Sequence record: NZ_CP072340.1
Direction: 5' to 3' (one strand)
DNA: 64,000 nucleotides
Source: a plasmid
This document shows, one piece after another, positions 5,976 through 27,649 of this stretch. The notes beneath the pieces are model-generated. The model searched no databases. It was not told where the DNA came from and saw nothing but the letters and a program-made list of their open reading frames with translations. The position numbers and the translations under genes were made by a program. The first letter of the stretch is position 1. Every line of letters begins with the position of its first letter.

Positions 5976-7205
5976 ATGAAACAAGAGAAAATGAAGGTGT
6001 TGCTCTACCTCAAAAAGAGCGGTCTTGACAAGTCGGGCAAGGCTCCGATTATGGGACGTATCACACTTGGAAGGAATGTTGCCCAGTTCAGTTGTAAACT
6101 CTCCTGCAATCCAGAGTTGTGGAATCCCCGTGAGAGTAGAGTGGACGGCAAGAGTCGTGAGGCAGTAGAGATAAACGGCAGGTTGGAGAGTTTGCTGTTG
6201 TCTGTTCAGTCGGCTTATCAAGCCTTACTTTCCAAAGGTTGCCCATTTGACGCAACCGATGTAAAGGAACTGTTTCAAGGCAGCGTACAGACACGATGTA
6301 TGCTTATCGAACGATTGGACATCCTCATCAGGGAGAAGAAAGAACATATTGGAATTGACATTAAGAGAGAAACAATTTCCAATTACTATACTACCCGTAA
6401 TAATCTTAGGACATTTATCGAAGACAAGTACAAGGTGGAAGATTTGTCTTTCTCGCAACTTACAGAAAATTTCATTTATGATTTCAGGGACTACTACTTG
6501 AACAAATTAGGGTTTCAGGAAAGTAGTTTCTATGCAGTTGCATCCCAAATAAAGACCGTATGCAGGTTGGCATACCGTGAAGGATTGGCTGACACCTTAT
6601 TATTTGCTAATGTAAAGATAGCAAGAGGTGATAAGAAACTCCCAAAGGCACTTGACAGACGTTCACTTGACAAACTAATGAATACCCACTTCGGAGAGTT
6701 GGAGGAAGAAATGGAAACAGCAAGGGATTTGTTTGTTTTTGCCTGTCATACAGGTGCAGCCTATTGTGATTTAATGGGATTAAGTAAGACACATCTTGTC
6801 CGTGATGATGAGGAAAATCTTTGGATGAAGTTCAATAGGCAGAAGACAGGTGTACTTTGCCGTATTAAGTTGTTGCCCGAAGCGATTAGGATAATAGAGA
6901 AGTATCGAAGCGAAGAAAGGGAAACGCTGCTGCCACAGATGAAGTATGCCACCTATCAATCGTATCTTAAAGCATTGCGCCTTAGAGTGGGCATTGCCTT
7001 TCCCTTTACCACGCATACGGCAAGGCACACCTTTGCTACGCTCATCACGCTTGAGCAAGGAGTTCCGATTGAAACTGTGAGCAAGATGCTCGGACATAGC
7101 AACGTAAGTATGACCGAGCGTTATGCAAAGGTTACACCCCAAAAACTCTTTGAGGAGTTTAATCGTTTTCTTTCTTTCACGGAGGATATGCAGATGAGTA
7201 TTTAG
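5976..7205 (+). CDS. tyrosine recombinase/integrase (Bacteroides CTn family), first of tandem pair
   Basis: N-terminal arm-binding-like MGRITLG region; catalytic HTARHTFATL...GHSNVSMTERYAKV (R-H-R-Y). Confidence 0.9.
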   Translation: MKQEKMKVLLYLKKSGLDKSGKAPIMGRITLGRNVAQFSCKLSCNPELWNPRESRVDGKSREAVEINGRLESLLLSVQSAYQALLSKGCPFDATDVKELFQGSVQTRCMLIERLDILIREKKEHIGIDIKRETISNYYTTRNNLRTFIEDKYKVEDLSFSQLTENFIYDFRDYYLNKLGFQESSFYAVASQIKTVCRLAYREGLADTLLFANVKIARGDKKLPKALDRRSLDKLMNTHFGELEEEMETARDLFVFACHTGAAYCDLMGLSKTHLVRDDEENLWMKFNRQKTGVLCRIKLLPEAIRIIEKYRSEERETLLPQMKYATYQSYLKALRLRVGIAFPFTTHTARHTFATLITLEQGVPIETVSKMLGHSNVSMTERYAKVTPQKLFEEFNRFLSFTEDMQMSI

Positions 7206-7233
7206 CAATAGACATATTAAAACTAAAATCATT

Positions 7234-8511
7234 ATGAGAAGTACATTCAAGATACTGTTCTATATCAACAGACAGAAAACTAAGGCAGACGGCAATACCG
7301 CCATTCTCTGCCGTATCACCATAGACGGAAAGAACACAGCCATTACCACAGGCGAAGAGTGCCAGCCTGCCGAGTGGAACTCCAAACAGGGTTTGACAAC
7401 CAATAGGAAGACCAACCAAAGAATCAATGAGTTCAGGGAATTGGTAGAAAAAACCTATCGGGACATACTGACGAGGGACGGAGTGGTAAGTGTGGAACTT
7501 ATCAAGAACAGTTTGCAAGGCATTGCCACTAACCCCACCACGCTCCTTGCAATGAGCAAAGCGGAACTGCAAGCCGTCAAGGAAAGCGTTGGAAAGTCAA
7601 GGGCAGAGGGGACTTATCTGAACCTTTACTATTCTGATAAAAATCTCCGAGATTTTATCGAAAACAAAGGAGTACAAGACATATCTATCGTCACCATTAC
7701 GGAGAGTTTGTTCGAGGAATACCGTTTCTTCCTAAAAAAGCGTGGGCTGAAAGCATCGACTGTCAATACCAATCTCAGTTGGCTGAGCCGACTGATGTTT
7801 CGTGCGGTGAGCAGCAGGATTATCCGCTGCAATTCCTTTGAGAACGCCAAGTATGAGAAGGAGGAAAAGAAGATACGCTTCTTGCAAAAGGGCGATGTAA
7901 TGAAACTTATGGCAATGACGATGAACGACAGAGAATCGGAATTGGCACGGCTGATGTTCGTCTTCTCCTGCTTCACAGGTATGGCTATCGCTGATATGGA
8001 AAATTTGGAATACAGGCATATCCAAACGGCAGCGGATGGGCGGAAGTATATCCGCAAGGAGCGTCAGAAGACAAAGGTTGAGTTTGTCGTACCATTGCAC
8101 CCGATAGCAGAGGCTATTATCCGCCATTGTCTGGAAGAGCAGAAAGGGAATGAAGAACAGCAGACGGTGAAAGAAAAAGGTAAAAAACATATCTTTCCCC
8201 GTGAGTGCAGCCGGAGCGTGATAGACGGCAGACTGAGTATTGTTGGCAAGGCTTGCGGTATCAGACAGAGATTGTCGTACCATGTTGCAAGGCATACCTT
8301 CGGTACGATGAGCCTAAGTGCAGGAATACCTATTGAGAGTATAGCCAAGATGATGGGGCACGCTTCCATATCAAGCACGCAGATTTATGCGCAGGTAACG
8401 GACAACAAGATTTCGGAGGATATGGACAGGCTTATTGCCAAACAATCGGCAAAGGATAAAGAAACTATGGAGAGAGAGGTTTGTGAACCAAACTCTGCTA
8501 ACTCGTTGTAA
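7234..8511 (+). CDS. tyrosine recombinase/integrase, second of tandem pair
   Basis: CRITIDGKN N-terminal motif; HVARHTFGT...GHASISSTQIYAQV catalytic box. Confidence 0.9.
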   Translation: MRSTFKILFYINRQKTKADGNTAILCRITIDGKNTAITTGEECQPAEWNSKQGLTTNRKTNQRINEFRELVEKTYRDILTRDGVVSVELIKNSLQGIATNPTTLLAMSKAELQAVKESVGKSRAEGTYLNLYYSDKNLRDFIENKGVQDISIVTITESLFEEYRFFLKKRGLKASTVNTNLSWLSRLMFRAVSSRIIRCNSFENAKYEKEEKKIRFLQKGDVMKLMAMTMNDRESELARLMFVFSCFTGMAIADMENLEYRHIQTAADGRKYIRKERQKTKVEFVVPLHPIAEAIIRHCLEEQKGNEEQQTVKEKGKKHIFPRECSRSVIDGRLSIVGKACGIRQRLSYHVARHTFGTMSLSAGIPIESIAKMMGHASISSTQIYAQVTDNKISEDMDRLIAKQSAKDKETMEREVCEPNSANSL

Positions 8512-8975: not shown

Positions 8976-9311
8976 ATGAAACAGTTGCACAAAACCCTAA
9001 AGGAAAAGCGAGAGCTTGAAGGTTACTCACAAGAGTATGTCGCTGGAAAACTGAATGTTAGCTCAAGTACCATTTCACGATGGGAAACTGGAGCTGTGTC
9101 GATGACCACCTCACAAACTTACAGTTATGCCAAGGTATTGGGATGGGATGAACTCGACCTGCTTGCATCTATTGCACAAAGACAACAGGCAAGACCGCTT
9201 CCACTCGCTCAGATGAGTATCGAAGTGTTTGACAAGGAATCCTACGACAGAATTATAGATCTTGTAAAGGAGCTTGGGCCGCAACACATTATTTTACAAA
9301 CCAAATTATAA
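8976..9311 (+). CDS. XRE-family helix-turn-helix transcriptional regulator
   Basis: YSQEYVAGKLNVSSSTISRWETG HTH motif; ORF track start 8940, start at 8976 (MKQLHK) more likely. Confidence 0.65.
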   Translation: MKQLHKTLKEKRELEGYSQEYVAGKLNVSSSTISRWETGAVSMTTSQTYSYAKVLGWDELDLLASIAQRQQARPLPLAQMSIEVFDKESYDRIIDLVKELGPQHIILQTKL

Positions 9312-9317
9312 AGGCTG

Positions 9318-9698
9318 ATGGAAATAATCGCAGTAGAAAGCCAAGCCTATCAGGAACTGATAGACAGGCTCAACCGAATAGAGCGGTATGTTGAGCGCAC
9401 TTCTCATCTTATCCAAGATATAGATGACGAGCTGGAGATGACAACCAAAGATCTTATCGGGACTCTGAATGTTTCAGAGTCCACCCTTTATCGCTGGCGC
9501 AAGAAACAGTTGGTACGGTATCGCTACACGGAGGGTGGCGATGTACGCTACTTCTTCAAGTCTATCGTGATAGCCACGAAATGTAACCGACTCCGTGTCT
9601 CAGGCATGAGAAACGACGAGGTTCTTGGTCGGCTCAACCGTTTTAAGGACAATCTCATCATAAGTTCATGTCTTAATCCTAAAAACCGACAACTATGA
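9318..9698 (+). CDS. helix-turn-helix DNA-binding protein (MerR/excisionase-like, CTn Xis-like)
   Basis: TKDLIGTLNVSESTLYRWRKKQLV motif. Confidence 0.6.
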   Translation: MEIIAVESQAYQELIDRLNRIERYVERTSHLIQDIDDELEMTTKDLIGTLNVSESTLYRWRKKQLVRYRYTEGGDVRYFFKSIVIATKCNRLRVSGMRNDEVLGRLNRFKDNLIISSCLNPKNRQL

Positions 9699-11755
9699 TA
9701 GAAAAGGAACAGATTCTTTTGCTTACACAGGGAGGTCTGAATGTGTTTTCCCATTTCCTCGGCTTTGAGGTAAACCTTCATCGCAACTTCCGAAGCCCCT
9801 TCTATGACGACAGACGGGCTTCCTGCCATATCTACTACGACAGGAAAACTTCTTCTTACAAATTCTATGATCATGGCGATACCACCTATTCAGGGGATTG
9901 CTTCTGGTTTGTGGCAACCCTCCGTAACTTGAACCTGAAAACAAGTTTTCCCGAAGTCTTGGAAACTATTGTACAAGAACTTGGATTGTATTCTTTATGT
10001 GATGGTGAAAAGCATAGCAACCATATCACGTTATCATATAAAAGAACTATCGTTCCCACTCCTAAGGCTGATATAACCAAGTGTACGGAAGAACGTCCAT
10101 ACAGTTTTGAGATACAGCCTTTTGACGATGGACTGATGAACTATTGGGCGCATTATGGTATCCATGAAGATACACTTCGGCTTTTTCGTGTACGGAGTCT
10201 TAAACGGTATGATAGCGTATCAGCCGAAGGTAAGAAGTTTGAGCTTCACAGTTCGCCGACAGAACCGATATTCGCCTATATTGGAAATGGCTATGTCAAG
10301 ATATATCGCCCTCACAGTCCGAAAATCCGCTTTCTCTATGGCGGGCGGATGCCTATGACCTATTGTTTCGGCATGGAGCAGATTCCCACCAAAGGAGATA
10401 TGCTCTTCATTACAGGTGGGGAAAAAGATGTGCTCTCGTTGTATGCGCACGGGTTCAATGCAATCTGCTTCAACAGTGAAACGGCACAAATACCGGAAAG
10501 CATCATAGAGAGCCTTCAACTTCGCTTTCGGCATATCATTCTCTTGTATGATGCAGATGAGACGGGTGTACGGGAAGCGCATAGACAAGCTGAACATTTG
10601 GCAGAATACAAGGTATTGAATCTTACACTCCCACTTAGTGGAACCAAGGCGGAAAAGGACATTTCTGATTTCTTTGCCTTAGGCAACGGGGCGAAGGAAC
10701 TGAAAGAACTGCTTGCCAAGATGTTTACAGACCTATATAGCCAAACCATGATGATGCTTCGCTCCTGTGAGATTGACTACGACAATCCACCGGATATTTC
10801 CAAGACTGTGGTGGCTGTGAATGGTGTCCCTTTGGGAACGCAGGACAATCTGTTCTGCATTACCGGAGGTGAGGGTACGGGCAAGAGCAACTATGTAGGA
10901 GCCATCCTTGCCGGAGCTTTGGGGAATAAACGGCTGCCGATAGAGAAAACCTTGGGATTGGAGATTACCGCCAATCCCAAAGACTTGGCAGTCCTACATT
11001 ATGACACAGAACAGTCCGAGGCTCAACTGCACAAGAATCTGGGCAAGACATTGCGCCGGGCTTCATTGACGGCAGTACCGAAGTTTTACCATTCACTCTA
11101 CCTTGCCTCACTCTCTCGTAAGGACCGCTTGAAACTTATCCGTGAAAGTATGGACTTGTTCCATCACAAGCATGGTGGAATACACCTCGTTGTCATTGAT
11201 GGTATTGCTGATCTGATACGTTCTGCGAACGATGAAACGGAAAGTATAGCCATTGTTGACGAACTTTACCGCTTGGCAGGGATATACAATACTTGTATTA
11301 TCTGCGTATTGCACTTCGTGCCGAACGGCATCAAACTTCGGGGACATATCGGCTCGGAACTTCAACGTAAGGCGGCGGGTATCCTTTCCATAGAGAAAGA
11401 CGACAATCCCGAATACTCGGTCGTAAAGGCGTTGAAAGTGCGTGACGGAAGTCCGTTGGACGTACCGATGATGCTTTTCGGCTGGGACAAGGAAGAAGAC
11501 ATGCACGTCTATCGTGGTGAGAAGTCCAAGGAGGACAAGGAAAAACGCAAAACCGATGAGCTTATTGGCGTTGTCAAAGAAGCCTTCCGAAATTCTTTCA
11601 AGCTCACTTACCAAGAACTTTGTGAGGTTCTGATGCGAGAGATGGAAATCAAGGACAGGACCGCAAAGAAATATATTGCCTATATGAAAGAGCAGCGTAT
11701 TTTGATACAAGATACAAGTGGGAATTATCAAAAAGGAGAATTATGCCATACTTAG
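9695..11755 (+). CDS. DNA primase (zinc-finger + Toprim) fused to P-loop NTPase/helicase-like domain
   Basis: Toprim GGEKD...[10 protein letters not shown]; Walker [13 protein letters not shown]; Walker-B-like [11 protein letters not shown]. Confidence 0.75.
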
Positions 11756-12051
11756 ATCAACAGCCAGAAGATACATGGCAGAAACGCCTGTTTGATAAAC
11801 TGAAGAATATGGAAGACAAGCTCGACCGTCTGCTTGTCCTACGGGAACAAGAAGTAGATACGACCATTCACCCTCCATTGAAACCCGAATACTTGGATAT
11901 CATAGATGTCTCCAAAATTTTGAAGGTGGAACAAAAGACCATTTACAACTGGGTTTGGGCTGGAAAAATTCCTTATCTTAAAGCCAATGGCAGATTACTT
12001 TTCCTTCGGAAAGAGATAGATGAAATGCTACGGAAACAAGGGAACTGGTAG
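11743..12051 (+). CDS. excisionase-family helix-turn-helix protein
   Basis: [33 protein letters not shown] motif typical of Xis/AlpA-like CTn proteins. Confidence 0.65.
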
Positions 12052-12056
12052 GCACC

Positions 12057-12111
12057 CGTTCATTATTTAATGCTTGTTCAATTTTGTTGAACAAGCATTA
12101 AATAATGAACG
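12057..12111 (+). terminator. perfect 25-bp inverted repeat hairpin (CGTTCATTATTTAATGCTTGTTCAA ttttg TTGAACAAGCATTAAATAATGAACG), terminator and/or operator
   Basis: Read directly, immediately 3' of 11743..12051; followed by TTGAACA/TGTTCA repeats to 12190. Confidence 0.6.
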
Positions 12112-12191
12112 AAAAAATTTGCAGTTTGATTTTTGTTCACTATCTTTGCAGTGTTCAATCCTATTGAACGACTATAAATATTGAACAAGAT

Positions 12192-13193
12192 ATGTACGGA
12201 ATACAGATTATAGATCAGGCGGTTAGTGCGATAAGGAGACAGTGGGAGGATTCTCAAGATGTCATAATCGATGCGCTTCAGCCGGAAACGCCTTCGATGG
12301 AACAATACGTCAGAATTATGGGCATAGAGTTCCGATGCCTTGTTGAAAATGAGATAAATGGAACAAATATCCTGCGCATTGAAGAAAAATCAAAGAGCTG
12401 TATGGGGACCTACAAGGGACCTGTCATATTGGTTGCAAGATATGTACAGCCATCTGTCTATGGAACTTTGCGTAAAATGGAACTTAACTTTGCTGACACG
12501 GCAGGTAACTACAATATACAGTACACGAAGGGCAGGAAAGTGATATTCCACCTTTCTCACACAGGGGAGAAAGTCCCTGTGAATAACAACAAAAACTATC
12601 CTATATTCCAAGAAGCAGGCCTGAAGGTAATCTTTTATCTCTTGCAAGCTCCTGAGAATGTGGGCAAATCTTTTCGGGAAATCAAGGAGTATAGTGGAGT
12701 TTCGATAGGTACTGTCAAAAATGTGATTGATGAATTGGAAGTCCGTAAGTTTATTCTCGTAACTCAGAAGAAAAGAGTTCTGAAAAAACGTCGTCTTTTG
12801 CTTGATTTATGGTCGGAAAACTATCGTCAGATATTAAAGCCCAAGTTGCTGTTGAAGCAGCTGGATTTTCGCACACCGGAACAAAAAGAAAAATGGGAAG
12901 AAATAGCATTGCCAAATGGTATGTTATGGGGTGGAGAGTGTGCATCTAATTTATTGAATGGTTACCTTACTCCGGAACTTTTTGAACTCTATACAGAGAC
13001 ACCTTTCTCCAATCTGATGAAGACCGGCGCAACACGGACTACCGAAGGAGTTATTTATATATATCAGAAGTTTTGGAAAGGCGATGTAATGCCCTGCATT
13101 TTGATATATGCCGATTTAGTAAGTAGCGGAGACAGCCGTTGTATTGAAGCTGCAAATAAATTATTAAAAGATGAACTTTCAGATTTCGAGTAA
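12192..13193 (+). CDS. hypothetical protein with central winged-HTH-like segment; first gene of 3-gene cassette
   Basis: SFREIKEYSGVSIGTVKNVIDELEVRKFIL HTH-like; 23-nt overlap with next gene. Confidence 0.5.
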   Translation: MYGIQIIDQAVSAIRRQWEDSQDVIIDALQPETPSMEQYVRIMGIEFRCLVENEINGTNILRIEEKSKSCMGTYKGPVILVARYVQPSVYGTLRKMELNFADTAGNYNIQYTKGRKVIFHLSHTGEKVPVNNNKNYPIFQEAGLKVIFYLLQAPENVGKSFREIKEYSGVSIGTVKNVIDELEVRKFILVTQKKRVLKKRRLLLDLWSENYRQILKPKLLLKQLDFRTPEQKEKWEEIALPNGMLWGGECASNLLNGYLTPELFELYTETPFSNLMKTGATRTTEGVIYIYQKFWKGDVMPCILIYADLVSSGDSRCIEAANKLLKDELSDFE

Positions 13194-14025
13194 GAAGATT
13201 GGCAACCCCCTGTTGGTTGAACTGCTAAGAAAAGTCAGTCATTGTTTTGCTGAGATTGGGCAGGATTTCTTTGTTATCGGGGCTACTGCGCGAGATATTT
13301 TAATTCGGCAGTTAGTAGGTATAAGTTCAGGGAGAAAGACGAGGGATTTAGACCTCGCCATAGCCATTCCCGATTGGAATGCATTCGAAGAGATTAAGCG
13401 GGCATTATTAGCACGAGGGTTTCAAAAAGACGGACAGATGTATCAACGGTTCTATGATGGCGACTACGAAATTGACATAGTACCATACGGAGATATAGAA
13501 AGAGAAGATGGATACATATACTGGCCTCCTGAGGAGGATATAGCTATGTCCGTTAAGGGGTTTGCTGATGTGCTGAGTGATGCTATTACCGTAACGATTG
13601 ACAATGAATTCGACATCAAGATAGCATCGTTGCATGGATTATTTGTATTGAAGTTCAATGCTTGGTTAGACAGGAATATCCAAACGAATAAAGATGCCGT
13701 AGATATGGCATTCATTCTGGAAAACTATTTCATTGCTAACTTGAATAGGAACTTGCATGCAGAAGTGTATGATTGGGAAGACTTTGATGAGATTGTTGTC
13801 GGAGCTTATTGGCTTGCTTATGACATTGTCGGATTTCTATCAAAAGAGCATCTTTGCCACTATGAGCAATGTCTGCGGAATGAGATAGAGAAAAGAGAAA
13901 ATAGCAGGCTGATACAACAGGTTATAGATAGTAGCAGTGTTTTTTCTTATGAGAAACTGCTCCTCGCATTTCAAAAAATGATTGCCGTATTTGATAAAGT
14001 TTTGCATGGTGAAGATCCAGATTGA
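13171..14025 (+). CDS. Pol-beta-superfamily nucleotidyltransferase (class-II/CCA-PAP-head-like, MenT/AbiEii-like minimal NTase)
   Basis: IGATARDILIRQ...TRDLDLAIAI...YEIDIVPYGD = G[AS]x..DxD..D NTase catalytic pattern with GGxxRD-like head. Confidence 0.65.
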   Translation: MNFQISSKKIGNPLLVELLRKVSHCFAEIGQDFFVIGATARDILIRQLVGISSGRKTRDLDLAIAIPDWNAFEEIKRALLARGFQKDGQMYQRFYDGDYEIDIVPYGDIEREDGYIYWPPEEDIAMSVKGFADVLSDAITVTIDNEFDIKIASLHGLFVLKFNAWLDRNIQTNKDAVDMAFILENYFIANLNRNLHAEVYDWEDFDEIVVGAYWLAYDIVGFLSKEHLCHYEQCLRNEIEKRENSRLIQQVIDSSSVFSYEKLLLAFQKMIAVFDKVLHGEDPD

Positions 14026-14641
14026 AAGCTTAAGTATTCCGGCTGGTAAAGAAAATGGAGATTACATTCTCCAACGAGAATTGCCTAATGGAGCAACACT
14101 CATTCTACTTGCAGATGGGATGGGTGGTTTGTCATTGCCGGAAAGTGCTTCAAAAATTGTTTGCGAAGCTATCTCAGAATATTTCGTAAAAACCGATATA
14201 ATTGATTGTACGGAACATATCCTCAGGAGCATCAAATATGCTGATGAGCGTCTGGCTGCTTTTTGCAAGGAGAAGAAATCCAAGATGGGTGCGGCTTTAC
14301 TTCTTGTATATATCAGTGATGCTATGCTCTTCTACACATCTTTGGGAGATGTGCGCCTATACTATCGAGACAAACAAGGAGAAGTAATTCAACTAACAAA
14401 CGATGATACCATTATGCAAGGAGCAGACACTTATCTGACAGCTTGCATTGCGGGAAGAGGTTTTAGAAACCCCATTCAGGTTCAACGTTTGCCATTGAAT
14501 ATGGGTGATTCTCTGCTGCTTTGTAGTGATGGCTATTACAAAGTTCATGATATTCCCCATTGTTTTCACCATAAAGAGCAGACACCTCCAACATTGGTAG
14601 ATGACGACAGCTCTGTTGTCAGAATAGAAATTATACAATGA
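13982..14641 (+). CDS. PP2C-family Ser/Thr protein phosphatase
   Basis: LILLADGMGG (PP2C motif 1) and LLLCSDGYYKV (PP2C DG motif); 44-nt overlap with NTase gene (alt start 14006). Confidence 0.7.
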   Translation: MPYLIKFCMVKIQIESLSIPAGKENGDYILQRELPNGATLILLADGMGGLSLPESASKIVCEAISEYFVKTDIIDCTEHILRSIKYADERLAAFCKEKKSKMGAALLLVYISDAMLFYTSLGDVRLYYRDKQGEVIQLTNDDTIMQGADTYLTACIAGRGFRNPIQVQRLPLNMGDSLLLCSDGYYKVHDIPHCFHHKEQTPPTLVDDDSSVVRIEIIQ

Positions 14642-14727
14642 ATCTGTCAAATTCTCTGATACGGTTTCTCAAAAGCGTCAAACACTTTATTTCAAGTACT
14701 TGGCGCTTTTCGATACAATAAGACATT

Positions 14728-16320
14728 CTACATCTTCCACTTTGGTTTTGAGATAATAACTTTGCTCGTAATGTCATTGTTGTCGGATACATTCTGCTGA
14801 CTATTGTTCTTGGGAGATGTGGGCAAAGGTATGTTGTCTGTGTTTTTTGAGAATGAATTCTTATAAGAACGGGGTTCTGATATATCATCTACTGATTTAC
14901 TTTGCTGTATGGCACCATGCTGTGCCTCTTGCCCTATATCCTCTTTTTCCTCCTCCGGTGGAGCAAGGGTAAGTGCAATTCGCCTATCCAGTTCGGCTGC
15001 CTCGCCTTTGAGCGTGCGAAGCTCTTCTTCCTTTTTCCAAGAGCTGCCCGCAATGTTGGTGTAAACGTCTTTATTGGCTGCGACCTTTTCCATCTCCTTT
15101 TCGTGCGACTCTATTACCTTCGGGATACGCTCCAAGGCATTGATAAAGTTCTGGCAAGCAAGTTTCGGATCGGATGCCAGCTTACCGTTATTATAGGTAT
15201 AGTAGATACTCTCCTGCCCCTTCACAAAGAAACGATTTACAGAGCAATCAAACAAGTCCTTGGAAGTGCTCTCCGTCTTAACCATAATAGAAAAGCCATA
15301 AATCTCACCGATTTTGTTGTATTCCCCCTTGGTGCGTGCTTTCTCGTCTATTTCCTGCAGACGTGCAGCAATGGCCTTGATATCGGTGCTGTCTTCCACA
15401 CCTTTGATAGTCAGCTTATTGATAGGCACACCTTCCTCATCACGCTCCACACGCTTCTCAAAGAGAGCCAAGTCAGACTGTGCCTCCTTGACTTTGTCTG
15501 TATGGAAAGACACGGAACTCTCAATCTCTGCCAGCTTGCCCGTTGCGGCATCACGCTCACGGAGAAAGTTCTTGCGCTCTGATTCCAAGGTGGTAATCTT
15601 CTTATCCAATCTTGCTTTTTCCAAAAGGTCGGTATTGCCTGAAAGTACTGCTACATATTCTGAAAAGTTCATACCGCTGTCCTCGTCCATCGATCCCTCG
15701 TCAATGGTACGGCTCCCTAAAGTGTTCGTCTTTAACTGGTTGATGAAAAGCTGCTTGTTGTGCAGCAGGTTGAACTTGTAACTGTCCAACGAGCGTTCCA
15801 CGGCATAAATAATCACATCGACCTTGTTGTCGGCAAACTCCTTGGCAACAAGATTACCTTTACGGATGGCACGCCCGTTACGCTGCTCTAAGTCCGATGG
15901 TCGCCACGGCGTGTCAAGTTGATGGACCGCTACTGCCCGCTGCTGGGCATTCACACCTGTGCCCAACATGGACGTAGAACCGAAGATAATGCGAATATCA
16001 CCACGGTTCATCGCATCTACCATTGCCTTCTTTGCTTTCTCGTTCTTGCACTCCTGAATGAAGCGTATCTCATAAGATGGAATATGATAGTCTTCTACCA
16101 ACTTTCTCTTGATTTCCGAATAGATATTGAAGTCTCCACCAGGCTTGTAAGTACCCAAGTCTGAGAAAACAAACTGCGTTCCTTTCTGTGCATCGTACTT
16201 TTGGTAATAGTCATTGAGCATTTTGGCACAGTGACTTGCCTTGTTGTCGATATGATCTGAGTAAGCATTTTCATCAATCATGCGTAAATCAAGGCTCATC
16301 TTCCTCGCATAATCAGTCAT
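14728..16320 (-). CDS. SNF2-helicase C-terminal domain protein = 3' fragment of the split N6-methylase/helicase gene
   Basis: Helicase motifs GSTSMLGTGVNAQ...QRNGRAIRKGN; begins MTDYARK, the same residues that end the 5' fragment at 27.7 kb; in-frame stop 9 nt upstream of ATG. Confidence 0.8.
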   Translation of the reverse strand: MTDYARKMSLDLRMIDENAYSDHIDNKASHCAKMLNDYYQKYDAQKGTQFVFSDLGTYKPGGDFNIYSEIKRKLVEDYHIPSYEIRFIQECKNEKAKKAMVDAMNRGDIRIIFGSTSMLGTGVNAQQRAVAVHQLDTPWRPSDLEQRNGRAIRKGNLVAKEFADNKVDVIIYAVERSLDSYKFNLLHNKQLFINQLKTNTLGSRTIDEGSMDEDSGMNFSEYVAVLSGNTDLLEKARLDKKITTLESERKNFLRERDAATGKLAEIESSVSFHTDKVKEAQSDLALFEKRVERDEEGVPINKLTIKGVEDSTDIKAIAARLQEIDEKARTKGEYNKIGEIYGFSIMVKTESTSKDLFDCSVNRFFVKGQESIYYTYNNGKLASDPKLACQNFINALERIPKVIESHEKEMEKVAANKDVYTNIAGSSWKKEEELRTLKGEAAELDRRIALTLAPPEEEKEDIGQEAQHGAIQQSKSVDDISEPRSYKNSFSKNTDNIPLPTSPKNNSQQNVSDNNDITSKVIISKPKWKM

Positions 16321-16427
16321 TAAGAATTAAGGGAAATAGGGGGAAACGCAAGGAATGTAACTATTTGAAATAATATCATTTAGCATTTTCTTACTATTTT
16401 GAGGGTAAGCAAGAACGAGCATCAAAC

Positions 16428-16495
16428 GGCAGGAGTTCCGTTACCAAATCGTAACCCATCAGGGAAAAAGCAAAAAGGGGTTACGAATTGAATGT
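16428..16495. repeat. conserved left-end block with inverted repeat CGTAACCC..(19 nt)..GGGTTACG (candidate attL/integrase site)
   Basis: Near-identical to 33816-33885. Confidence 0.6.
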
Positions 16496-17831
16496 AAACA
16501 ACTGTGTCATAGGTTTTTATTCTTCATCTTTCATTATTCTGCATCGCTCAGGAATACTTGTTCGTATGTACCTTTGCAAGCAAAGGAAATTTAGAAAAAA
16601 CGACAGAAAAATGAAAGAAAACAAACTCAAAGTATCGTTCTTCGTTCAGGCGAAACGAACCGACAAGAAAGGACTTGTGCCTGTCATTGGGCGAATCTCC
16701 GTTGGCAGAACCCATTCGGGCTTCTCCACCAAGTGTAAGACTCCGCTCGCTCTTTGGGACAGCCGTAAGCAACGGCTCATCGGTAAGAGCAGCATGGCTG
16801 TGTCCGTCAATCAGAAACTCGGCGAATGCACCGCACTTATCCACGCACGCTTTCACGAACTCAGTGAAAGGAAAGAAACTTTCACAGCCACAGACGTGAG
16901 GGATGCCTATCAAGGACAAATCCACCGCCAAACCCTGCTCTTGGAGAGTTTCGGGGAGTATCTCACACAGACAAAGGAGCGCATAGGCATTGATAGAGCT
17001 TTAAAGACATTCAAACTCCGTACCTACCAGCTATCCCTGCTTCGTGAGTATGTGCAGAAGAAGCACAAAGTAAGCGACATTCCACTCTCACAGCTGGACA
17101 AAGCATTTATCGAGGGCTTCGAGTATTATCTCACCATTGACCGAAAGCTGAAACGCAGCAGCGTATCGAGTGCCTTATCCACCTTGCAGACCATCGTCCG
17201 CATGGCGGTAAAGAAAGGTGTGCTGGACTTCTATCCTTTTTTGGGATACAGTTACGAGCGACCAAAGGGTGAACCAAGAAGCATTACGCAGGAAGAACTT
17301 GAGCGCATCATCGAGTTGAAGATTGAATGGGAGAACTATCGTATTGTCCGTGATTTGTTCGTCTTCTCCTGCTTTTCAGGGCTTGCCATCTCCGATGTCC
17401 GCAATCTGAGAGAGGAAAACATTGTCTTGGAAGAAGGCGAACTCTGCATCAAGGGCAGCCGAATGAAGACCAAAACTCCGTATCGTGTACAGGTACTTCC
17501 TCCTGCTTGGGCGATAATGGAGCGTTACAGAGGAAAGCGTGCAGGCTTTGTCTTTGACGTACCGACTACCGACATTATCCTCAATGGCATGCACCACATA
17601 CAGAGAAACATCGGCATGGAAAGTCCGCTGACCTTCCACATGGCTCGGCACACCTTTGCGTCGCTAATCACACTCTCGGCAGGTGTACCTATCGAAACGG
17701 TGAGCCGTATGCTCGGACACACCAACCTGAGAACAACACAGGTATATGCAGCGGTTTCCTCCGAAAGAATCCATCGGGACATGCAGATAGTGCAGCAGCG
17801 CATACAAGATACATTCACCTTAAAACTTTGA
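16488..17831 (+). CDS. tyrosine integrase, first of pair (true start probably 16611 MKENKLKV)
   Basis: HMARHTFASL...GHTNLRTTQVYAAV; ORF-track N-terminus overlaps conserved noncoding end repeat. Confidence 0.85.
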   Translation: MNVNNCVIGFYSSSFIILHRSGILVRMYLCKQRKFRKNDRKMKENKLKVSFFVQAKRTDKKGLVPVIGRISVGRTHSGFSTKCKTPLALWDSRKQRLIGKSSMAVSVNQKLGECTALIHARFHELSERKETFTATDVRDAYQGQIHRQTLLLESFGEYLTQTKERIGIDRALKTFKLRTYQLSLLREYVQKKHKVSDIPLSQLDKAFIEGFEYYLTIDRKLKRSSVSSALSTLQTIVRMAVKKGVLDFYPFLGYSYERPKGEPRSITQEELERIIELKIEWENYRIVRDLFVFSCFSGLAISDVRNLREENIVLEEGELCIKGSRMKTKTPYRVQVLPPAWAIMERYRGKRAGFVFDVPTTDIILNGMHHIQRNIGMESPLTFHMARHTFASLITLSAGVPIETVSRMLGHTNLRTTQVYAAVSSERIHRDMQIVQQRIQDTFTLKL

Positions 17832-17835
17832 CCTC

Positions 17836-19104
17836 ATGACACGTAGTACATTCAAGACACTCTTTTATATCAATCGCTCCAAAGAGAAAAAGAACGGCAA
17901 ATGCCCGATTATGGGACGCATCACCATAGACGGTGAGCAGGTGCAATACAGCACGGGCAAGGAAATCGCTCCCGAACTTTGGGACAGTCGTAAGGGACGA
18001 TGCAAGGGTATAGGCGAAGAGACAAAGGAAATCAACCGCTATTTACAAAGCAAAGAGGAACAAGCCAAAGCGAAGTATCAAGAATTAGTCTGGCAACGTG
18101 GCTATATTACCGCTGAGTTGCTGAAGCGTGAACTCATGGAAGAAGACAAGCCCAAAGGTTTTCTTATGGAGGAAGCACGACTTTTCATAGAGGAAAAGCG
18201 TCCTTGCGTAGGAATAACGGTAGCCAAGCCGACCTTTGCCAACTACATCTATGCCACACAACTCATTGAGGCTTATTTGCGTGAACGCTTGGGGCTGGAG
18301 GATATTCGCTACTCATCGCTTGACTATGGTTTCATCGAGGGGCTGGACTTCTATCTTAAATCAGAGCGCAAACTCTCCCTTGCCACCATTCAGATTGTTG
18401 TCATTTTCCTGAGGAAACTCATCGGCATAGGTCAGCAGAAGAAGTATATCCGCATCGATCCGTTTGCAGACTACAAAGCAGAACTTCCACACCGCACAAG
18501 ACGTTATCTCACTACGGAGGAACTACAACGAGTATTGCAAACACCCATCATTGACAGACAATTCGAGCGAGCAAGGCAACTATTCCTTTTCTGTGCCTTC
18601 ACCGGTTTGGCTCGTGTAGATATGCAACGGCTCAAACCGAAGCATATCATCTATAATGCTGACGGCACGGCGGAAATCCGCATCAAAAGGCAGAAAACAG
18701 ACGTGGAAGCCATCATTCCACTCCTGCCCATTGCCACGCAAATCCTTTCGCTCTATATCAAGGACAAGAAAGCAGACGACTTGATATTCCCCAATCTCAC
18801 AATAAGGAAAGCATCCTTTGCGTGTGTGAACATCGGGCAGATATGCCGGATAGAGAAAGGCTTGACCTTTCACATGGCTCGCCACACATTCTCAACCACG
18901 ATTTGCCTTTCCAACGGCATCTCAATGGAAACGCTCAGCAAGATGCTCGGACACAGCAATATAGGTACGACACAAATCTACGGAAAGATAACCGACCACA
19001 AGATACAAGAGGATATGACCGCACTCACTGACAGGGAGCATTCTGTATTTGAGGGTTATTGTGAGTCGATAGCACGGCAGAACGTTCCATTGCAACAAGC
19101 ATAA
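17836..19104 (+). CDS. tyrosine integrase, second of pair
   Basis: MGRITIDGEQ arm-type N-term; HMARHTFSTT...GHSNIGTTQIYGKI. Confidence 0.85.
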   Translation: MTRSTFKTLFYINRSKEKKNGKCPIMGRITIDGEQVQYSTGKEIAPELWDSRKGRCKGIGEETKEINRYLQSKEEQAKAKYQELVWQRGYITAELLKRELMEEDKPKGFLMEEARLFIEEKRPCVGITVAKPTFANYIYATQLIEAYLRERLGLEDIRYSSLDYGFIEGLDFYLKSERKLSLATIQIVVIFLRKLIGIGQQKKYIRIDPFADYKAELPHRTRRYLTTEELQRVLQTPIIDRQFERARQLFLFCAFTGLARVDMQRLKPKHIIYNADGTAEIRIKRQKTDVEAIIPLLPIATQILSLYIKDKKADDLIFPNLTIRKASFACVNIGQICRIEKGLTFHMARHTFSTTICLSNGISMETLSKMLGHSNIGTTQIYGKITDHKIQEDMTALTDREHSVFEGYCESIARQNVPLQQA

Positions 19105-19156
19105 AAAGGAAGTAATTACCAAACATTTATTATTCACGATTGAAAACCAAACGATT

Positions 19157-19624
19157 ATGAAAGAGAACAACAAACAGGAACTTTCTTACTTTCGATTGAA
19201 ATTAAGAAGTTATATGAGTGAGCATCACCCCGAAAAATTGCACGACACGGAGTTTATCACCACACGAGCAGACATGGCTCTCACTGCCTACTGCGATGCT
19301 GTGGCACAAGGTTTTTCGCACCTCGAAGCAGAGAACATAGCAAGTGAGGTGTTGTATCAAGGTTTGCACTTTTCCAAGTACGACACGCTTGTTTCTGTCT
19401 TAGAGAACGAGTTTGAGAGGGAACTGCCTGCACCACTCCCTGAGAAGCTTGCACCCATATTGTTGTCGAATGAGGCTGTTCAAGCCACATTCGACAAGTT
19501 CGGTTTGACGGACACATTTGCTTCTGACGAGCAATACGACCGTCTTTACACCGAACTCACAGGCACGATTGTGCTGCTCATCGAGAGCAATCATTTGCCA
19601 ATAATCGGTCAGACGGAGGGGTAA
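19157..19624 (+). CDS. conserved hypothetical protein of Bacteroides integrative elements (homolog at 36507..36977)
   Basis: ~85% identical paralog in element 3. Confidence 0.6.
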   Translation: MKENNKQELSYFRLKLRSYMSEHHPEKLHDTEFITTRADMALTAYCDAVAQGFSHLEAENIASEVLYQGLHFSKYDTLVSVLENEFERELPAPLPEKLAPILLSNEAVQATFDKFGLTDTFASDEQYDRLYTELTGTIVLLIESNHLPIIGQTEG

Positions 19625-19714
19625 GTCCAAAGGCGTTGTAAGCAAAGGCACACGCAAAGTCCCTGATGCCGTTTCTTATCGTGCAAAGGTACAACGGCAG
19701 CTAATCTGCCCTGA

Positions 19715-19761
19715 CAAGGTCAAGTCCTGCGGATGGAGAGAAGAATCTCCACCGCAGGATT
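19715..19761 (+). terminator. hairpin TCCTGCGGATGGAGA..TCTCCACCGCAGGA + T-tract
   Basis: Read directly; conserved copy at 37078-37121. Confidence 0.6.
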
Positions 19762-19959
19762 TTTCTTTTTCAAGGTGGTATTGCCATTTTCAATAGCCAT
19801 GCGGTCGTATTCATCTCTCCCAACCTTGCAGAGCAGGGCTGCCGTAGAGAGTATAGGCACGACAAGAATACGGCATACTCAGGCTCTTTGGACGCAAGGC
19901 GTAACAACCAACAACAGATAGGACTGACGATAATACGGACAATCTGTTGTTTGTACAAT

Positions 19960-20080
19960 TTGTTGTCATGACTATCTATTGTCAAAACTATATATCGTCA
20001 AAATAATCTATCGATAAAACTATCTATCGACACTTCGACATCTCGATTTGTCGAACTATCGAATTATCGATAAAACAACA
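19960..20080. repeat. iteron-like TATCGA/ATCGAT repeat array
   Basis: ctatcgataaaactatctatcgacacttcgacatctcgatttgtcgaactatcgaattatcgataaaac. Confidence 0.6.
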
Positions 20081-20303
20081 AAATAATAAAAGGAACGAGC
20101 CGGCACCTCATCTCATTACCGCAATAACACAGATGGATCTCCTTTGGTCTTTTCTCTTGTTTTCTCTCTATTTCCCTGCTTATCCTCATTTCTTGCAGCG
20201 GTGCTTCCGAGGGTTTACTTTTGCACTTGATAAGTACGGCAATGGACTGCATAACAGTTTGTTTGCCGAGTAACAATAAAGTAATCAAAACAAAATTAAG
20301 GCA

Positions 20304-20573
20304 ATGAAACTCATTATCATCGACCGCAAAGCGTGGGAGCGACACCACTCCGAATTTGCAGACTTTATCCACAGTATCGAACAACTCATCGGCAATCCGC
20401 CCGAAACGGACGAATGGCTTGACAACGAAGCCGTGTGCAAGCGTTTGGGCATCAGCAAACGTACCCTGCAATCATACAGAGATACGGGGAAAATCCCTTT
20501 CTCAATGATTGGACACAAGTGCTATTACAAGGAGAGCGACATCACGGAGTTACTGAACGCAAACAATGAATGA
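20304..20573 (+). CDS. Xis-like helix-turn-helix protein
   Basis: AVCKRLGISKRTLQSYRDTGKIPF; paralog 37670..37948. Confidence 0.65.
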   Translation: MKLIIIDRKAWERHHSEFADFIHSIEQLIGNPPETDEWLDNEAVCKRLGISKRTLQSYRDTGKIPFSMIGHKCYYKESDITELLNANNE

Positions 20574-20576
20574 ACT

Positions 20577-20891
20577 ATGACAGAGAACGAAATCATTACA
20601 CAGCAAGCCCCTCAGATGCAGATGTTTGCACAACTGATGGAGGGCATCTTAAAGAAACTGGAGCGTTATTGCGCTACCGCCCGTCCGATGCTGGGCGGAG
20701 AGGTTTACCTCACTGGCGAGGAGGTTTGCAGCCAATTACGGCTCAGCACACGCACGCTCCAAGAGTACAGAAACTTAGGAACACTTCCTTTCTACAAAAT
20801 CGGAGGGAAGATACTTTACAAACAGAGCGACATACAAACAATGCTTGAAAGGCATTATAACGCAATACCCAAGAAATTATGGCAAGAATAG
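20577..20891 (+). CDS. Xis-like helix-turn-helix protein
   Basis: EEVCSQLRLSTRTLQEYRNLGTLPFYKIGGKILY; paralog 37952..38266. Confidence 0.65.
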   Translation: MTENEIITQQAPQMQMFAQLMEGILKKLERYCATARPMLGGEVYLTGEEVCSQLRLSTRTLQEYRNLGTLPFYKIGGKILYKQSDIQTMLERHYNAIPKKLWQE

Positions 20892-21385
20892 ATGAACAAA
20901 GGAAACAGCGTCTGGAACAAGCCCTTCGAGATATGGGCAATTATGGCGTTAAGCTCCGCAAGCCAGAAGAGTTGCCCGATTTTGATCAGCCCATAGATTA
21001 TGAAGAGGAAAAGAAAAGATTTGAGCCTGTTAAAGTTGAGGAACAAAATGACAAGGAGAGTCACAAGGACTATTCTCAACCGTCCAATCAAGAAACAGAG
21101 TTGTCACCAAAGGAAAGGGCTACTTCTACTGAAGAGAATCATCAACGAATGGGAAAAACAAGGGACAGGAAGCAATTATCCGAGTTTCAGGGGAAATATC
21201 TCCAGCCCTTTCGCAACAGCCACCGCAAAGCCGTGTATGTATCAGAGGAAACTCAACGAAAGTTGGACTTCGTGGTGAGGAAAATCGGTGAGCAGGGAGC
21301 AAGCGTTTCAGGATATGTGGAGCAGGTGCTTCGAGAACATCTCGACCAATACAAAGATGATGTGGAAAGATGGCGGAAACTCTGA
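20879..21385 (+). CDS. DUF3408-like protein (TraB/TraC-related C-terminal domain)
   Basis: N-term MARIDEQRKQRLEQALRDMGNYGV resembles TraB 61333..61857; C-term ..VSGYVEQVLREHLDQYKDD matches TraB/TraC C-termini. Confidence 0.55.
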   Translation: MARIDEQRKQRLEQALRDMGNYGVKLRKPEELPDFDQPIDYEEEKKRFEPVKVEEQNDKESHKDYSQPSNQETELSPKERATSTEENHQRMGKTRDRKQLSEFQGKYLQPFRNSHRKAVYVSEETQRKLDFVVRKIGEQGASVSGYVEQVLREHLDQYKDDVERWRKL

Positions 21386-21394
21386 AGTACTGCA

Positions 21395-21595
21395 TTCCTC
21401 GAATGCAAGCCTACGCCGAGTTACTGTATTCAGTGAATGCAGTAACACGGCATGGGCTTATAATCCCATTTTCTACATCAGCAAGGTGTGTCTTTGTCCG
21501 ACAAACTACCGTTTGTCCCACAAAAACCCTTGCCCCGAAGGGGATTAAATCACTCCAAAGTCGTGATTAGACAACAAACAAAACAAGTTAAGATT
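21395..21595. promoter_or_regulatory. oriT-like conserved block upstream of MobA-like gene
   Basis: aaggtgtgtctttgt..tttgtcccacaaaaacccttgccccgaagggga..ctccaaagtcgtgattaga shared with 38335-38577 and (inverted) 59986-60110. Confidence 0.5.
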
Positions 21596-22021
21596 ATGCC
21601 TAAATTAGAAATAGCCAACAACAACCGCTACGGTCATCGTAGGATAGAAGAAGTGCCACGCTGGGACAGATGGGACACCCGTATGCCAGATGTGAAAGAC
21701 CAACTGCGAGCCATCGACCTGTACAACAAGTCGGGGGCAGTGAGCAAGTCCGATTTCGTTCGTGCCCGTATCCTTGGAGAGAGATTCAAGGTGATAATGG
21801 TGGATAAGTCCGCAGTTGAGTATTACCGCAAGCTCTCTGAACTCACAGCCCAAGTACATAAGATTGGCATAAACTATAATCAAGTCGTCCGCTTGATGCA
21901 CCTTTATACGGCAGAGAAAAGTGTAAAAGCTTTGTTGCAGGAACTTATCCAACTAACAAAAGAACTCACTACCTTCCAAGAGAAAGCAGTGAGTTTAACC
22001 ATTGACTATCGGGAGAGATAA
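21596..22021 (+). CDS. MobA-like relaxosome accessory protein
   Basis: Homolog of backbone mobA (59566..59985) and of 38578..39006; ORF-track start 21488 lies in conserved noncoding block. Confidence 0.7.
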   Translation: MPKLEIANNNRYGHRRIEEVPRWDRWDTRMPDVKDQLRAIDLYNKSGAVSKSDFVRARILGERFKVIMVDKSAVEYYRKLSELTAQVHKIGINYNQVVRLMHLYTAEKSVKALLQELIQLTKELTTFQEKAVSLTIDYRER

Positions 22022-22037
22022 GGAATGTGCGATGGAA

Positions 22038-22523
22038 TTATATTCCCCCAAGCATTTTTTGCAGCAGATTGCCCGATGTTCGTGTTATTTGGAAGTCTAT
22101 GGTTTGGTTTTCTACTGTTTTTATGTCGGCTGGCTTGAAACGACAAAGGGCTTCCTGACGCTCCAATGTGTCACGGACGGAAGAAAGGTCCTGTATCTGC
22201 CCTGCAAACGTTCCATAGGGAGATTGCAGATAAATCATTTGTCTGTTTACATTGTCGGGGCGTTTATTCTCGAACTTTAATAAGATGGTTATATCTGTGC
22301 TGTCCGCTGGTGTTGCGGTTGTTGCTCCGTGTACGGTAGCCGTTCCCGAATACACTTGTTTATAAGGCAGGAAATAGGCTACGGCTAACAGACAAAGCAA
22401 AACAGCTCCTATGGCAGTAATACCATAACGAACGAGAGATGAGGGTATCTGCCCCACGATGCTGCGTACTTTCTCGCTGCGGAGCTCAAAACTCCGTTCC
22501 TGTTTCTTTTCCTGGTTTTCCAT
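22038..22523 (-). CDS. short HlyD-family-like membrane protein (periplasmic adaptor N-terminus, 161 aa)
   Basis: Cytoplasmic N-term, one TM helix, then ...SGTATVHGA like HlyD/CvaA N-termini; 1-nt gap to upstream ABC gene. Confidence 0.4.
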   Translation of the reverse strand: MENQEKKQERSFELRSEKVRSIVGQIPSSLVRYGITAIGAVLLCLLAVAYFLPYKQVYSGTATVHGATTATPADSTDITILLKFENKRPDNVNRQMIYLQSPYGTFAGQIQDLSSVRDTLERQEALCRFKPADIKTVENQTIDFQITRTSGNLLQKMLGGI

Positions 22524-22524
22524 A

Positions 22525-24738: not shown

Positions 24739-24804
24739 TTATGATATATAAAACTATACTAAAAATACTATACTAAAGTAAATATTAAATTTGCAAAAAT
24801 ATTA

Positions 24805-27141: not shown

Positions 27142-27231
27142 TACAACAAGAAAGTTATAGAGATATAAAGTTGTAAATAAAAATAAAATGTCTGACTATG
27201 AACGAAAGAGCATAGTCAGACACAGAAACTC

Positions 27232-27408: not shown

Positions 27409-27649
27409 AACTAAATAGAATAAAGTTTATACTTGGCTCGGTATTCTCCGAACCGTTAATTAAAATTTGGATGTCAGAGTTTCGCACGATGTGCATATTA
27501 ACAGACATTCAATTGCAATATTACGAAAAGAAAACGAGAAAAACAAATTTTTCGCCACGTTTTTTGCGATTTCCATTATTTTGTGTCGTTTTTCATAATG
27601 AAATGACTATCTTTGCAACTATAAATTAAGTGTTCATTGAAGCATTGCA

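Follow-up and report, generated by a model that had tools for sequence, protein, structure and literature searches.

Organization of the cassette

The window analysed here is a 64,000-nucleotide stretch of plasmid DNA (sequence record NZ_CP072340.1). Its positions 12192-14641 hold a cassette of three genes that encode a putative AbiEi-type antitoxin (gene 1), a predicted nucleotidyltransferase (NTase) toxin (gene 2) and a PP2C protein phosphatase (gene 3), preceded by a promoter overlaid with inverted repeats (Table 1). The same-strand cassette reported in a preliminary description of this DNA was found as stated, with all three open reading frames (ORFs) on the plus strand in the program-made ORF list, and the motifs IGATARDIL, TRDLDLAIAI, EIDIVPYGD, LLADGMGG and LLCSDGY every one present in the translations. 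GC content is 0.39-0.41 across 12-15 kb compared with 0.44-0.46 in the 9-12 kb region directly upstream.

Genes 1 and 2 overlap by exactly 23 nt, as first described, and the same 23-nt overlap recurs in related loci, where the gene 1 frame mostly stops at locus position 4020 and the gene 2 match begins at 4001. The overlap of 44 nt originally given for genes 2 and 3 holds only with the TTG start of the listed ORF (13982-14641, 219 aa). In the alignment of gene 3 homologs the N-terminus reads M(V/M/I)KIQIES in all cases and gene callers choose the same start, so that the true start is most likely ATG 14006, making an overlap of 20 nt the likelier one.

Table 1. Genes and upstream regulatory features of the cassette, in window positions.
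Feature	Position	Strand	Remarks
25-bp perfect inverted repeat, 5-nt spacer	12057-12081 / 12087-12111		100% complementary; four GTTCA/TGAAC half-sites
Distal operator core GTTCAAT-TTT-GTTGAAC (putative)	12076-12092		one mismatch to family palindrome; centre 12084
Bacteroidetes-type promoter (predicted)	12118-12148	+	-33 TTTG 12118-12121, 19-nt gap, -7 TAtcTTTG 12141-12148
GTTCA half-site within promoter	12135-12139		embedded in 12118-12148
Proximal operator palindrome GTTCAAT-CCT-ATTGAAC (putative)	12153-12169		overlaps expected transcription start; centre 12161
Extra half-site TTGAACAAG	12181-12189	+	2 nt ahead of gene 1 ATG; conserved in upstream alignment
Gene 1, AbiEi_2-family antitoxin, putative autorepressor	12192-13193	+	333 aa; domains 1-123, 141-197, 200-330
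Gene 2, DUF1814/AbiEii-MenT-type NTase, predicted toxin	13171-14025	+	284 aa; PF08843, MenT1 profile/fold match
Gene 3, minimal PP2C/PPM Ser/Thr phosphatase	14006-14641	+	211 aa; alternative start TTG 13982 (219 aa)

The nucleotidyltransferase

Gene 2 matches the Pfam family AbiEii (PF08843, DUF1814) with an E-value of 1.1e-8 and 35.8 bits against a cutoff of 22.5, and its family comprises 1,553 clusters at 50% identity (E<=1e-10). The complete NTase catalytic set is present, namely the G[GSA] motif (G37 A38), the DxD within R55-x-T57-x-D59-x-D61, a third Asp (D102), a Lys (K161) and a C-terminal Asp (D178). This set is kept in 80/80 loci of the close clade described below, and G37, A38, T57, D59, D102, K161 and D178 are invariant in an alignment of 66 diverse relatives. 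A single-sequence search of the PDB with gene 2 returned nothing relevant. A profile built from the 66 sequences was needed, and among solved structures it matched MenT1 (8an4) best, with RKT57RD59LD61 of gene 2 aligned to RFT39RD41VD of MenT1, K161 to K137 and D178 to D152 (the PDB chain numbering of 8an4 is offset by +1). The AlphaFold (AF2) model of gene 2 has a predicted local distance difference test score (pLDDT) of 96 and a predicted template modelling score (pTM) of 0.93. Foldseek matched this model best to chains of MenT1, among them those of entry 8rr5 with phosphorylated T39; sequence identity to the MenT structures is just 11-17%. Both the PF08843 match and the MenT1 fold match bear out the initial assignment of gene 2 as a minimal NTase of the AbiEii/MenT type.

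The invariant T57, which is aligned to MenT1 T39, precedes the first catalytic Asp by two residues. The phospho-acceptors T39 of MenT1 and S78 of MenT3 (PMC11375011), and T65 of AbiEii, occupy the equivalent place, and by analogy T57 is predicted to be phosphorylated here.

The antitoxin and the phosphatase

Residues 197-325 of gene 1 match the Pfam family AbiEi_2 (PF09952; E 4e-18, 66.5 bits against a cutoff of 21), weak helix-turn-helix (HTH) matches to Pfam occur at residues 145-195, and the homologs carry the NCBI name 'type IV toxin-antitoxin system AbiEi family antitoxin'. The AlphaFold model (pLDDT 85) places an alpha/beta endonuclease-like domain at the N-terminus (1-123), followed by a disordered linker, a winged HTH (141-197) and a separate C-terminal domain (200-330). 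A sequence search of the PDB found no solved structure related to the gene 1 family. On sequence and predicted structure, gene 1 is an AbiEi_2 antitoxin/regulator with a winged HTH, and it has what an AbiE-type antitoxin has, being upstream of and overlapping the toxin gene and carrying both the winged HTH and the AbiEi C-terminal domain. The preliminary description had correctly placed a winged-HTH-like segment in the centre of the protein. Its label 'orphan' has to be dropped given the AbiEi_2 match and the naming of the homologs.

Gene 3 matches the Pfam family PP2C_2 (PF13672; E 2.7e-16, 60.2 bits against a cutoff of 24), and its nearest solved relatives are PstP and Stp1. Against the NCBIfam Stp1/IreP equivalog NF033484 it scores 75.6 bits, far under the cutoff of 230, and it is thus not assigned to that equivalog. 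The PPM/PP2C metal-binding aspartates are conserved: across 65 gene 3 homologs D19, D37-G38, D175-G176 and D200-D201 are kept at 97-100%, at an overall identity reaching down to around 35%. Furthermore, the gene 3 clade is discrete, as E-values leap from 2.7e-26 to 1.1e-10 between the triad-linked PP2Cs and housekeeping Stp1-like proteins. Gene 3 is, as first proposed from its motifs, a PP2C with an intact catalytic and metal-binding site, and we predict it to be active.

A cassette copy 97% identical to that of the window lies near dnaA in two metagenome contigs (L009:5716-8416 and L010) and is decayed in all three genes: gene 1 is frameshifted, genes 2 and 3 carry two stops and one stop, respectively, and catalytic positions have changed from D to N or from G to D; 40/72 of its substitutions are G>A or C>T. 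Its short PP2C had been considered as a case of selective PP2C loss, which we rejected as all three genes are broken in that copy. Likewise, PP2Cs of 118-122 aa (94-98% identity) do not indicate frequent inactivation of the phosphatase, the short L011 protein being an artefact of a run of Ns in the scaffold.

Conservation of the three-gene unit

The reference species with relatives of gene 2 number 247 and are almost exclusively Bacteroidales. We surveyed the neighbourhoods of a close clade, taking one genome per species and keeping 80 loci whose NTase is 46-98% identical to gene 2, and of a distant clade from rumen, gut and fermenter metagenomes (NTase 36-43% identical). In the close clade a gene 1 homolog is upstream in 80/80 loci and a PP2C directly downstream in 64/78 evaluable loci. 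The distant clade gave very similar figures, with gene 1 upstream in 70/71 loci and PP2C downstream in 70/76. Taken together, the antitoxin is upstream in 150/151 evaluable loci and the PP2C downstream in 134/154 (87%), likewise of evaluable loci.

The triad keeps its layout in at least three kinds of unrelated surroundings. In Porphyromonas levii it lies in an element syntenic with the window, elsewhere it is found beside IS66 and ABC-transporter genes, and in another genome it sits with its own promoter and operator between the genes for thioredoxin, GTP cyclohydrolase and HSP90. The most divergent PP2Cs of the clade also sit within triads. Identities to the window correlate between the three genes with r of 0.95-0.98, conservation being highest for the NTase and lowest for the PP2C, which is the fastest evolving. 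The three genes are therefore inherited and evolve together as a unit, and a lack of co-conservation, which had been named at the outset as grounds for giving up the idea of a functional module, is contradicted by this neighbourhood analysis. We are highly confident that the cassette represents a module of the AbiE type joined by a PP2C that co-evolves with it.

The loci that lack the PP2C are informative in their own right. All of them keep the antitoxin, every NTase catalytic residue is retained (14/14) and the NTase is full-length in 12/14. Their nearest NTase relatives (85-95% identical) mostly have the PP2C. Because the PP2C-less loci are scattered among PP2C-bearing relatives, the sequence data indicate that the PP2C is ancestral and has been lost repeatedly. 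Since these loci retain an intact NTase and the antitoxin, the PP2C is evidently not required for tolerating the toxin and is dispensable for neutralization, which fits an activator rather than an antitoxin.

When we looked for a replacement phosphatase in the PP2C-less loci, a candidate was found in one of them only (L050). There, a calcineurin-like metallophosphoesterase gene (L050:4878-5681; PF00149, E 5e-7) begins 40 nt past the NTase gene. Its motifs GDIHED, GDCG and GNHD are generic and not diagnostic of a protein phosphatase, and in this single case a non-homologous phosphatase may occupy the PP2C slot. A second PP2C-less locus has a Hanks-type Ser/Thr kinase (L094:5623-7296; Pkinase, E 1.8e-47) around 800 nt downstream on the same strand, which may be a coincidence.

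Outside the Bacteroidales the picture is simpler. Relatives on proteobacterial plasmids (32-35% identity) are two-gene AbiEi+NTase loci beside restriction, Wadjet-like and DUF262/HNH genes. We found neither PP2C-linked NTases nor a genuine PDC-M21 (see below) on plasmids, where the NTase relatives are two-gene and the PP2C matches belong to FHA/kinase or other unrelated modules. In one such distant two-gene locus, on the Vibrio alginolyticus plasmid pVb1762, a third gene of 146 aa (L099:3779-4219) overlaps the 3' end of the NTase gene by 29 nt and has no significant Pfam match; the slot after the toxin may thus accept other accessory genes. Among viral contigs the triad family occurs in 6 loci only, and so the triad is not typically phage-borne.

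Promoter and operators

The palindrome GTTCAWT-N3-AWTGAAC has a single occurrence in the 64-kb window (12153-12169), against 0.00 expected. Across the family it lies closely upstream of the gene 1 homolog in 77/98 loci, always at that place. Where a locus has two palindromes their spacing is 76-78 bp, and the two centres in the window are 77 bp apart, one on each side of the predicted promoter. The upstream regions of triads in unrelated contexts share one order of elements, which runs from a TGTTCAWT-N3-AWTGAACA palindrome through the half-site TTGAACAA and a -33 TTTG to a GTTCA half-site abutting the -7 TAnnTTTG box, and then to the second palindrome and a final half-site before the ATG. In an alignment of 22 diverse loci the columns TTGTTCA..TA..TTTG are invariant or nearly so. 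The Bacteroides promoter consensus likewise consists of a -33 and a -7 element. In the distant clade the half-site is kept (TGAACAA in 60/66 upstream regions) and the spacer is altered to N7-8.

The PP2C-less loci have an identical operator architecture and hence the operator belongs to the gene 1 regulator. Inverted repeats that are conserved, lie over the promoter and are not expected by chance are consistent with autoregulation, and we predict that gene 1 binds them and represses the operon. The 25-bp repeat and the TTGAACA repeats had from the start been taken for an operator, and their conservation, non-random occurrence and position at the promoter support that view. The long repeat itself is by this comparison a lineage-specific elaboration of the smaller conserved distal operator, which in the window lies within it; the 55-bp inverted-repeat segment is 100% identical in Prevotella denticola and Hallella seregens. 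An intrinsic terminator as its main role was considered and rejected, for the RNA hairpin is strong (-36.6 kcal/mol, z -8.3) yet no U-tract follows it.

Relation to known systems

Among described toxin-antitoxin (TA) systems the closest in organization is AbiE of Streptococcus agalactiae and Lactococcus, classed as type IV and now proposed to be type VII. It shares with the cassette the antitoxin-then-toxin order with overlapping genes, a winged-HTH antitoxin that autoregulates through inverted repeats (predicted here) and a toxin of the DUF1814 NTase type in which a Thr precedes the catalytic DxD by two residues, and for AbiE itself in vitro experiments have shown that a PP2C reverses the phosphorylation. 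There are also clear differences. The antitoxin of the cassette is of the AbiEi_2 family (PF09952) rather than COG5340-type and has the additional N-terminal endonuclease-like domain, gene 2 matches the AbiEii models of PADLOC only marginally, and the cassette has a co-conserved PP2C whereas S. agalactiae depends on housekeeping Stp1. Given that the two-gene composition of AbiE is exceeded by this third gene, we file the locus as a non-canonical AbiE variant.

MenAT1 and MenAT3 (TglT-TakA) of Mycobacterium tuberculosis provide the best structural and profile match to gene 2. Here too the toxin is neutralized by antitoxin-induced auto-phosphorylation and a reactivating phosphatase has been postulated. 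However, MenA1 is small and unrelated to gene 1, and no phosphatase is encoded alongside MenAT, PstP being found elsewhere in the genome.

PADLOC also contains a candidate system, PDC-M21 (Payne et al. 2024 preprint), with the composition FAM_01665>>FAM_00091>>FAM_01402 and 166 RefSeq instances; a two-gene FAM_01665>>FAM_00091 version exists as well. Like our cassette it has three genes, of which the B model matches the NTase and the C models match the PP2C. PDC-M21B matches 45/66 diverse NTases compared with <=6 for any single AbiEii model. These matches are weak (E 1e-5 to 1e-11 for B and 1e-5 to 1e-9 for C; 29.7 and 22.8 bits, respectively, in the window), and no A model matched gene 1 in the window (E<=1) or in three other triads (E<=0.01). 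With the A component unmatched, the PADLOC models as tested do not support calling the locus PDC-M21. Furthermore, PDC-M21 was nominated as embedded in BREX, DISARM or type I restriction-modification loci, whereas the cassette is found in integrase/primase/excisionase, housekeeping or IS contexts. In the preprint PDC-M21 is named in a supplementary table only and AbiE is absent from the main text. We regard the cassette as a distant sibling of this uncharacterised candidate. It had been claimed that no described module adds a PP2C to an NTase TA pair. Literature searches that combined PP2C with toxin-antitoxin and nucleotidyltransferase, AbiEii with PP2C, or used the name PDC-M21 found no such description in the library searched, and to that extent the claim holds; it overlooked the PDC-M21 candidate, which pairs an NTase with a PP2C.

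In partner-switching modules such as RsbU/RsbX and SpoIIE, a PPM phosphatase opposes phosphorylation and flips the switch. Gene 3 differs from these and from housekeeping PP2Cs in having no kinase, FHA or STAS partners and in being always operon-linked to the NTase toxin. It has the PPM fold and the metal-binding Asp set of Stp1 and PstP, but is around 30 residues shorter than their catalytic domains.

A model for toxin silencing and re-arming

DUF1814 toxins such as MenT and AbiEii present a puzzle, in that degradation of the antitoxin cannot revive a toxin that has been covalently phosphorylated. MenA antitoxins induce auto-phosphorylation of their toxins and so block NTase activity (PMC11375011), and AbiEi similarly induces auto-phosphorylation of AbiEii at T65 with loss of NTase activity (bioRxiv 10.64898/2026.01.19.700257). 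Because antitoxin degradation cannot re-activate a covalently modified toxin, a reactivating phosphatase has been postulated since 2020 (PMC7205606). The enzymes tried so far were housekeeping PP2Cs, and in vitro only: PstP dephosphorylates MenT3, slowly (PMC7205606), and SaSTP strips the phosphate from AbiEii and restores its activity, the in vivo role of phosphatases being one that 'remains to be explored' (bioRxiv 10.64898/2026.01.19.700257).

Based on these precedents we propose, with moderate confidence, that the cassette is a type VII-like TA module of the AbiE/MenAT kind, serving abortive infection or addiction, with a dedicated reactivating phosphatase. The HTH of gene 1 would bind the GTTCAWT-N3-AWTGAAC operators and repress the operon, and its AbiEi_2 C-terminal domain would bind the NTase and cause it to phosphorylate its own T57, blocking the active site. 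Unphosphorylated NTase would add nucleotides to tRNA acceptor ends and arrest translation. The PP2C would remove the T57 phosphate, so that a pre-made pool of silenced toxin could be quickly re-armed once antitoxin control lapses, for example upon phage infection or loss of the mobile element, and the conserved N-terminal endonuclease-like domain of gene 1 could be the sensor of such a trigger. Carrying its own PP2C would make the module independent of host phosphatases, an advantage for an element that crosses genera. We infer each of these steps (repression, T57 auto-phosphorylation, tRNA modification and dephosphorylation by gene 3) from the characterised relatives. The PP2C is cast as the re-arming enzyme because the cassette combines the invariant Thr and an antitoxin of the AbiEi family with a PP2C that is intact, co-evolves with the pair and can be lost, and on balance we lean towards phospho-T57 of the gene 2 toxin as its substrate. 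The preliminary description had proposed a TA, abortive-infection or signalling switch under phosphorylation or nucleotidylylation control; the TA type agrees with the AbiEi and AbiEii families found here, and what it had missed was the published antitoxin-induced auto-phosphorylation.

Several points weigh against this model. The functional steps are borrowed from COG5340-type AbiEi and from MenA, and the gene 1 family PF09952 differs from both; we found no member of PF09952 that has been tested or solved. T57 belongs to the NTase active-site motif, and its conservation, which the model requires, is therefore no proof of it. A PP2C made from the same operon would steadily counter the antitoxin if nothing gated or outcompeted it, and we identified no gating feature. 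The PP2C is also non-obligatory, being absent from 20/154 loci. Finally, phosphorylation, toxicity and the specificity of the phosphatase are predictions for this cassette.

Alternative explanations

The PP2C may act on a substrate other than the toxin, either stripping phosphates that phage or host kinases have placed on the antitoxin or toxin, as a counter-counter-defence, or tuning the DNA binding of gene 1. This we consider unlikely. The kinase of phage T7 disarms defences by promiscuous phosphorylation of host proteins that bind DNA (PMC13645617), gene 1 is itself a predicted DNA binder, the rate of evolution is highest for the PP2C among the three genes, as would suit an arms-race interface, and the PP2C-less locus L094 has the Hanks-type kinase described above. 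Yet the same paper reports no defence-encoded phosphatase ('PP2C' occurs 0 times; PMC13645617) and MenA1 itself is not phosphorylated (PMC11375011), and the three-way co-evolution together with a known phospho-toxin intermediate makes the toxin the most economical substrate. It is improbable that the PP2C-fold protein is instead a second antitoxin that reverses the product of the toxin, as a SidD-like de-nucleotidylylase or a similar repair enzyme. SidD deAMPylases do share the PP2C fold, and gene 3 has a very weak match to the NCBIfam SidD family (E 0.069, 13 bits); this is far under the cutoff of 50, however, and the significant relatives are phosphatases of the PstP/Stp1 type. The characterised relatives of the toxin modify tRNA rather than proteins, and the intact NTases of the PP2C-less loci show that the toxin can be tolerated with no PP2C present.

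Two further explanations would take the cassette out of the TA systems altogether. That it is a regulatory or signalling module for excision or transfer of a conjugative or integrative element, with no TA or defence role, could be argued from its position directly after an HTH_17 excisionase-like gene in an integrase-flanked module, both in the window and in P. levii, and from its near-identity (96.6-99.6%) across three genera. We judge this very improbable, since elsewhere the triad lies with its own promoter and operator among housekeeping genes and beside IS66, and the two-gene relatives adjoin restriction and Wadjet-like genes on proteobacterial plasmids. The other, that gene 2 is an antibiotic-modifying NTase of the ANT/Lnu families with the PP2C as an unrelated neighbour, was the case originally set out as fatal to the module, and it did not hold. 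Foldseek does rank LnuA (4fo1; E 1.2e-4, template modelling (TM) score 0.60) and ANT(2'')-Ia (E 3e-4, TM 0.59-0.60) roughly on par with MenT1, and a figure legend on example multi-gene PADLOC candidates in Payne et al. has an AAD(2'') label beside PP2C, the candidate to which it belongs being unstated. But no ANT/Lnu family appears among the Pfam or NCBIfam hits or, at E<=10, in the PDB profile search (where MenT1 is best), gene 2 has 284 aa and a C-terminal helical domain compared with about 160-177 aa for LnuA and ANT(2''), an excess of some 110 residues, and it is paired with an AbiEi antitoxin and a co-conserved PP2C. The likeness is one of fold only, and we consider this explanation effectively refuted by the profiles and the pairing.

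Significance of an operon-encoded phosphatase

The genetic linkage of a PP2C to a TA pair across the surveyed loci serves as nature's own genetic evidence that dephosphorylation belongs to the logic of the system. Gene 3 probably encodes the phosphatase that has long been postulated to free DUF1814 toxins of their inactivating phosphate, and if so it would answer how these covalently silenced proteins are re-armed. We raise, tentatively, the possibility that this is the first TA family to encode its own toxin-reactivating enzyme, forming a host-independent and reversible phospho-switch of writer-inducer, target and eraser. With the three together in one compact operon the cassette offers a model in which they can be studied side by side, and the naturally occurring PP2C-less variants are its internal controls. 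Bacteroidales of the human mouth and gut and of the rumen commonly carry the system, and through the movement of its element among Prevotella, Hallella and Alloprevotella it bears on how stably elements are kept and how phages are resisted in the microbiome.

Genomic setting

Upstream of the cassette is an HTH_17 excisionase-like gene (11743-12051), and downstream of it a Helicase_C fragment on the minus strand (14728-16320). The enclosing module consists of HTH_3 and HTH_17 genes, a Toprim/AAA_25 primase-like gene and the HTH_17 excisionase-like gene. It had been described as the accessory slot of a conjugative transposon. The position between Xis-like and helicase genes is indeed as described, but the cassette is not specific to such a slot, as it occupies ordinary chromosomal neighbourhoods too. 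Window positions 9171-16302 are 96.6-99.6% identical at the nucleotide level, over 5.6-7.1 kb, to loci L019, L020 and L021 from genomes of three genera (P. denticola, H. seregens and Alloprevotella rava), which indicates a very recent horizontal spread of the cassette-bearing element between genera.

Two tandem pairs of Arm-DNA-bind_5/Phage_integrase tyrosine recombinase genes (5976-8511 and 16488-19104) flank the module, an arrangement that suggests nested or adjacent integrative elements. The second pair stands at the start of an insertion of around 11.5 kb (16303-27757) from which P. denticola, A. rava and H. seregens are free. The insertion splits an N6-methylase/DUF2958/SNF2/Helicase_C gene into parts of 530 aa and 1,577 aa (14728-16320 and 27727-32460, minus strand), and by this comparison the 'helicase fragment' next to the cassette represents the C-terminal portion of this large methylase-helicase gene. 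The low-GC cargo of the insertion includes genes for a C39-peptidase ATP-binding cassette (ABC) exporter at 22525-24738 and for an outer-membrane beta-barrel protein at 24805-27141. The stretches 16439-16459 and 27677-27697 may form an imperfect terminal direct repeat.

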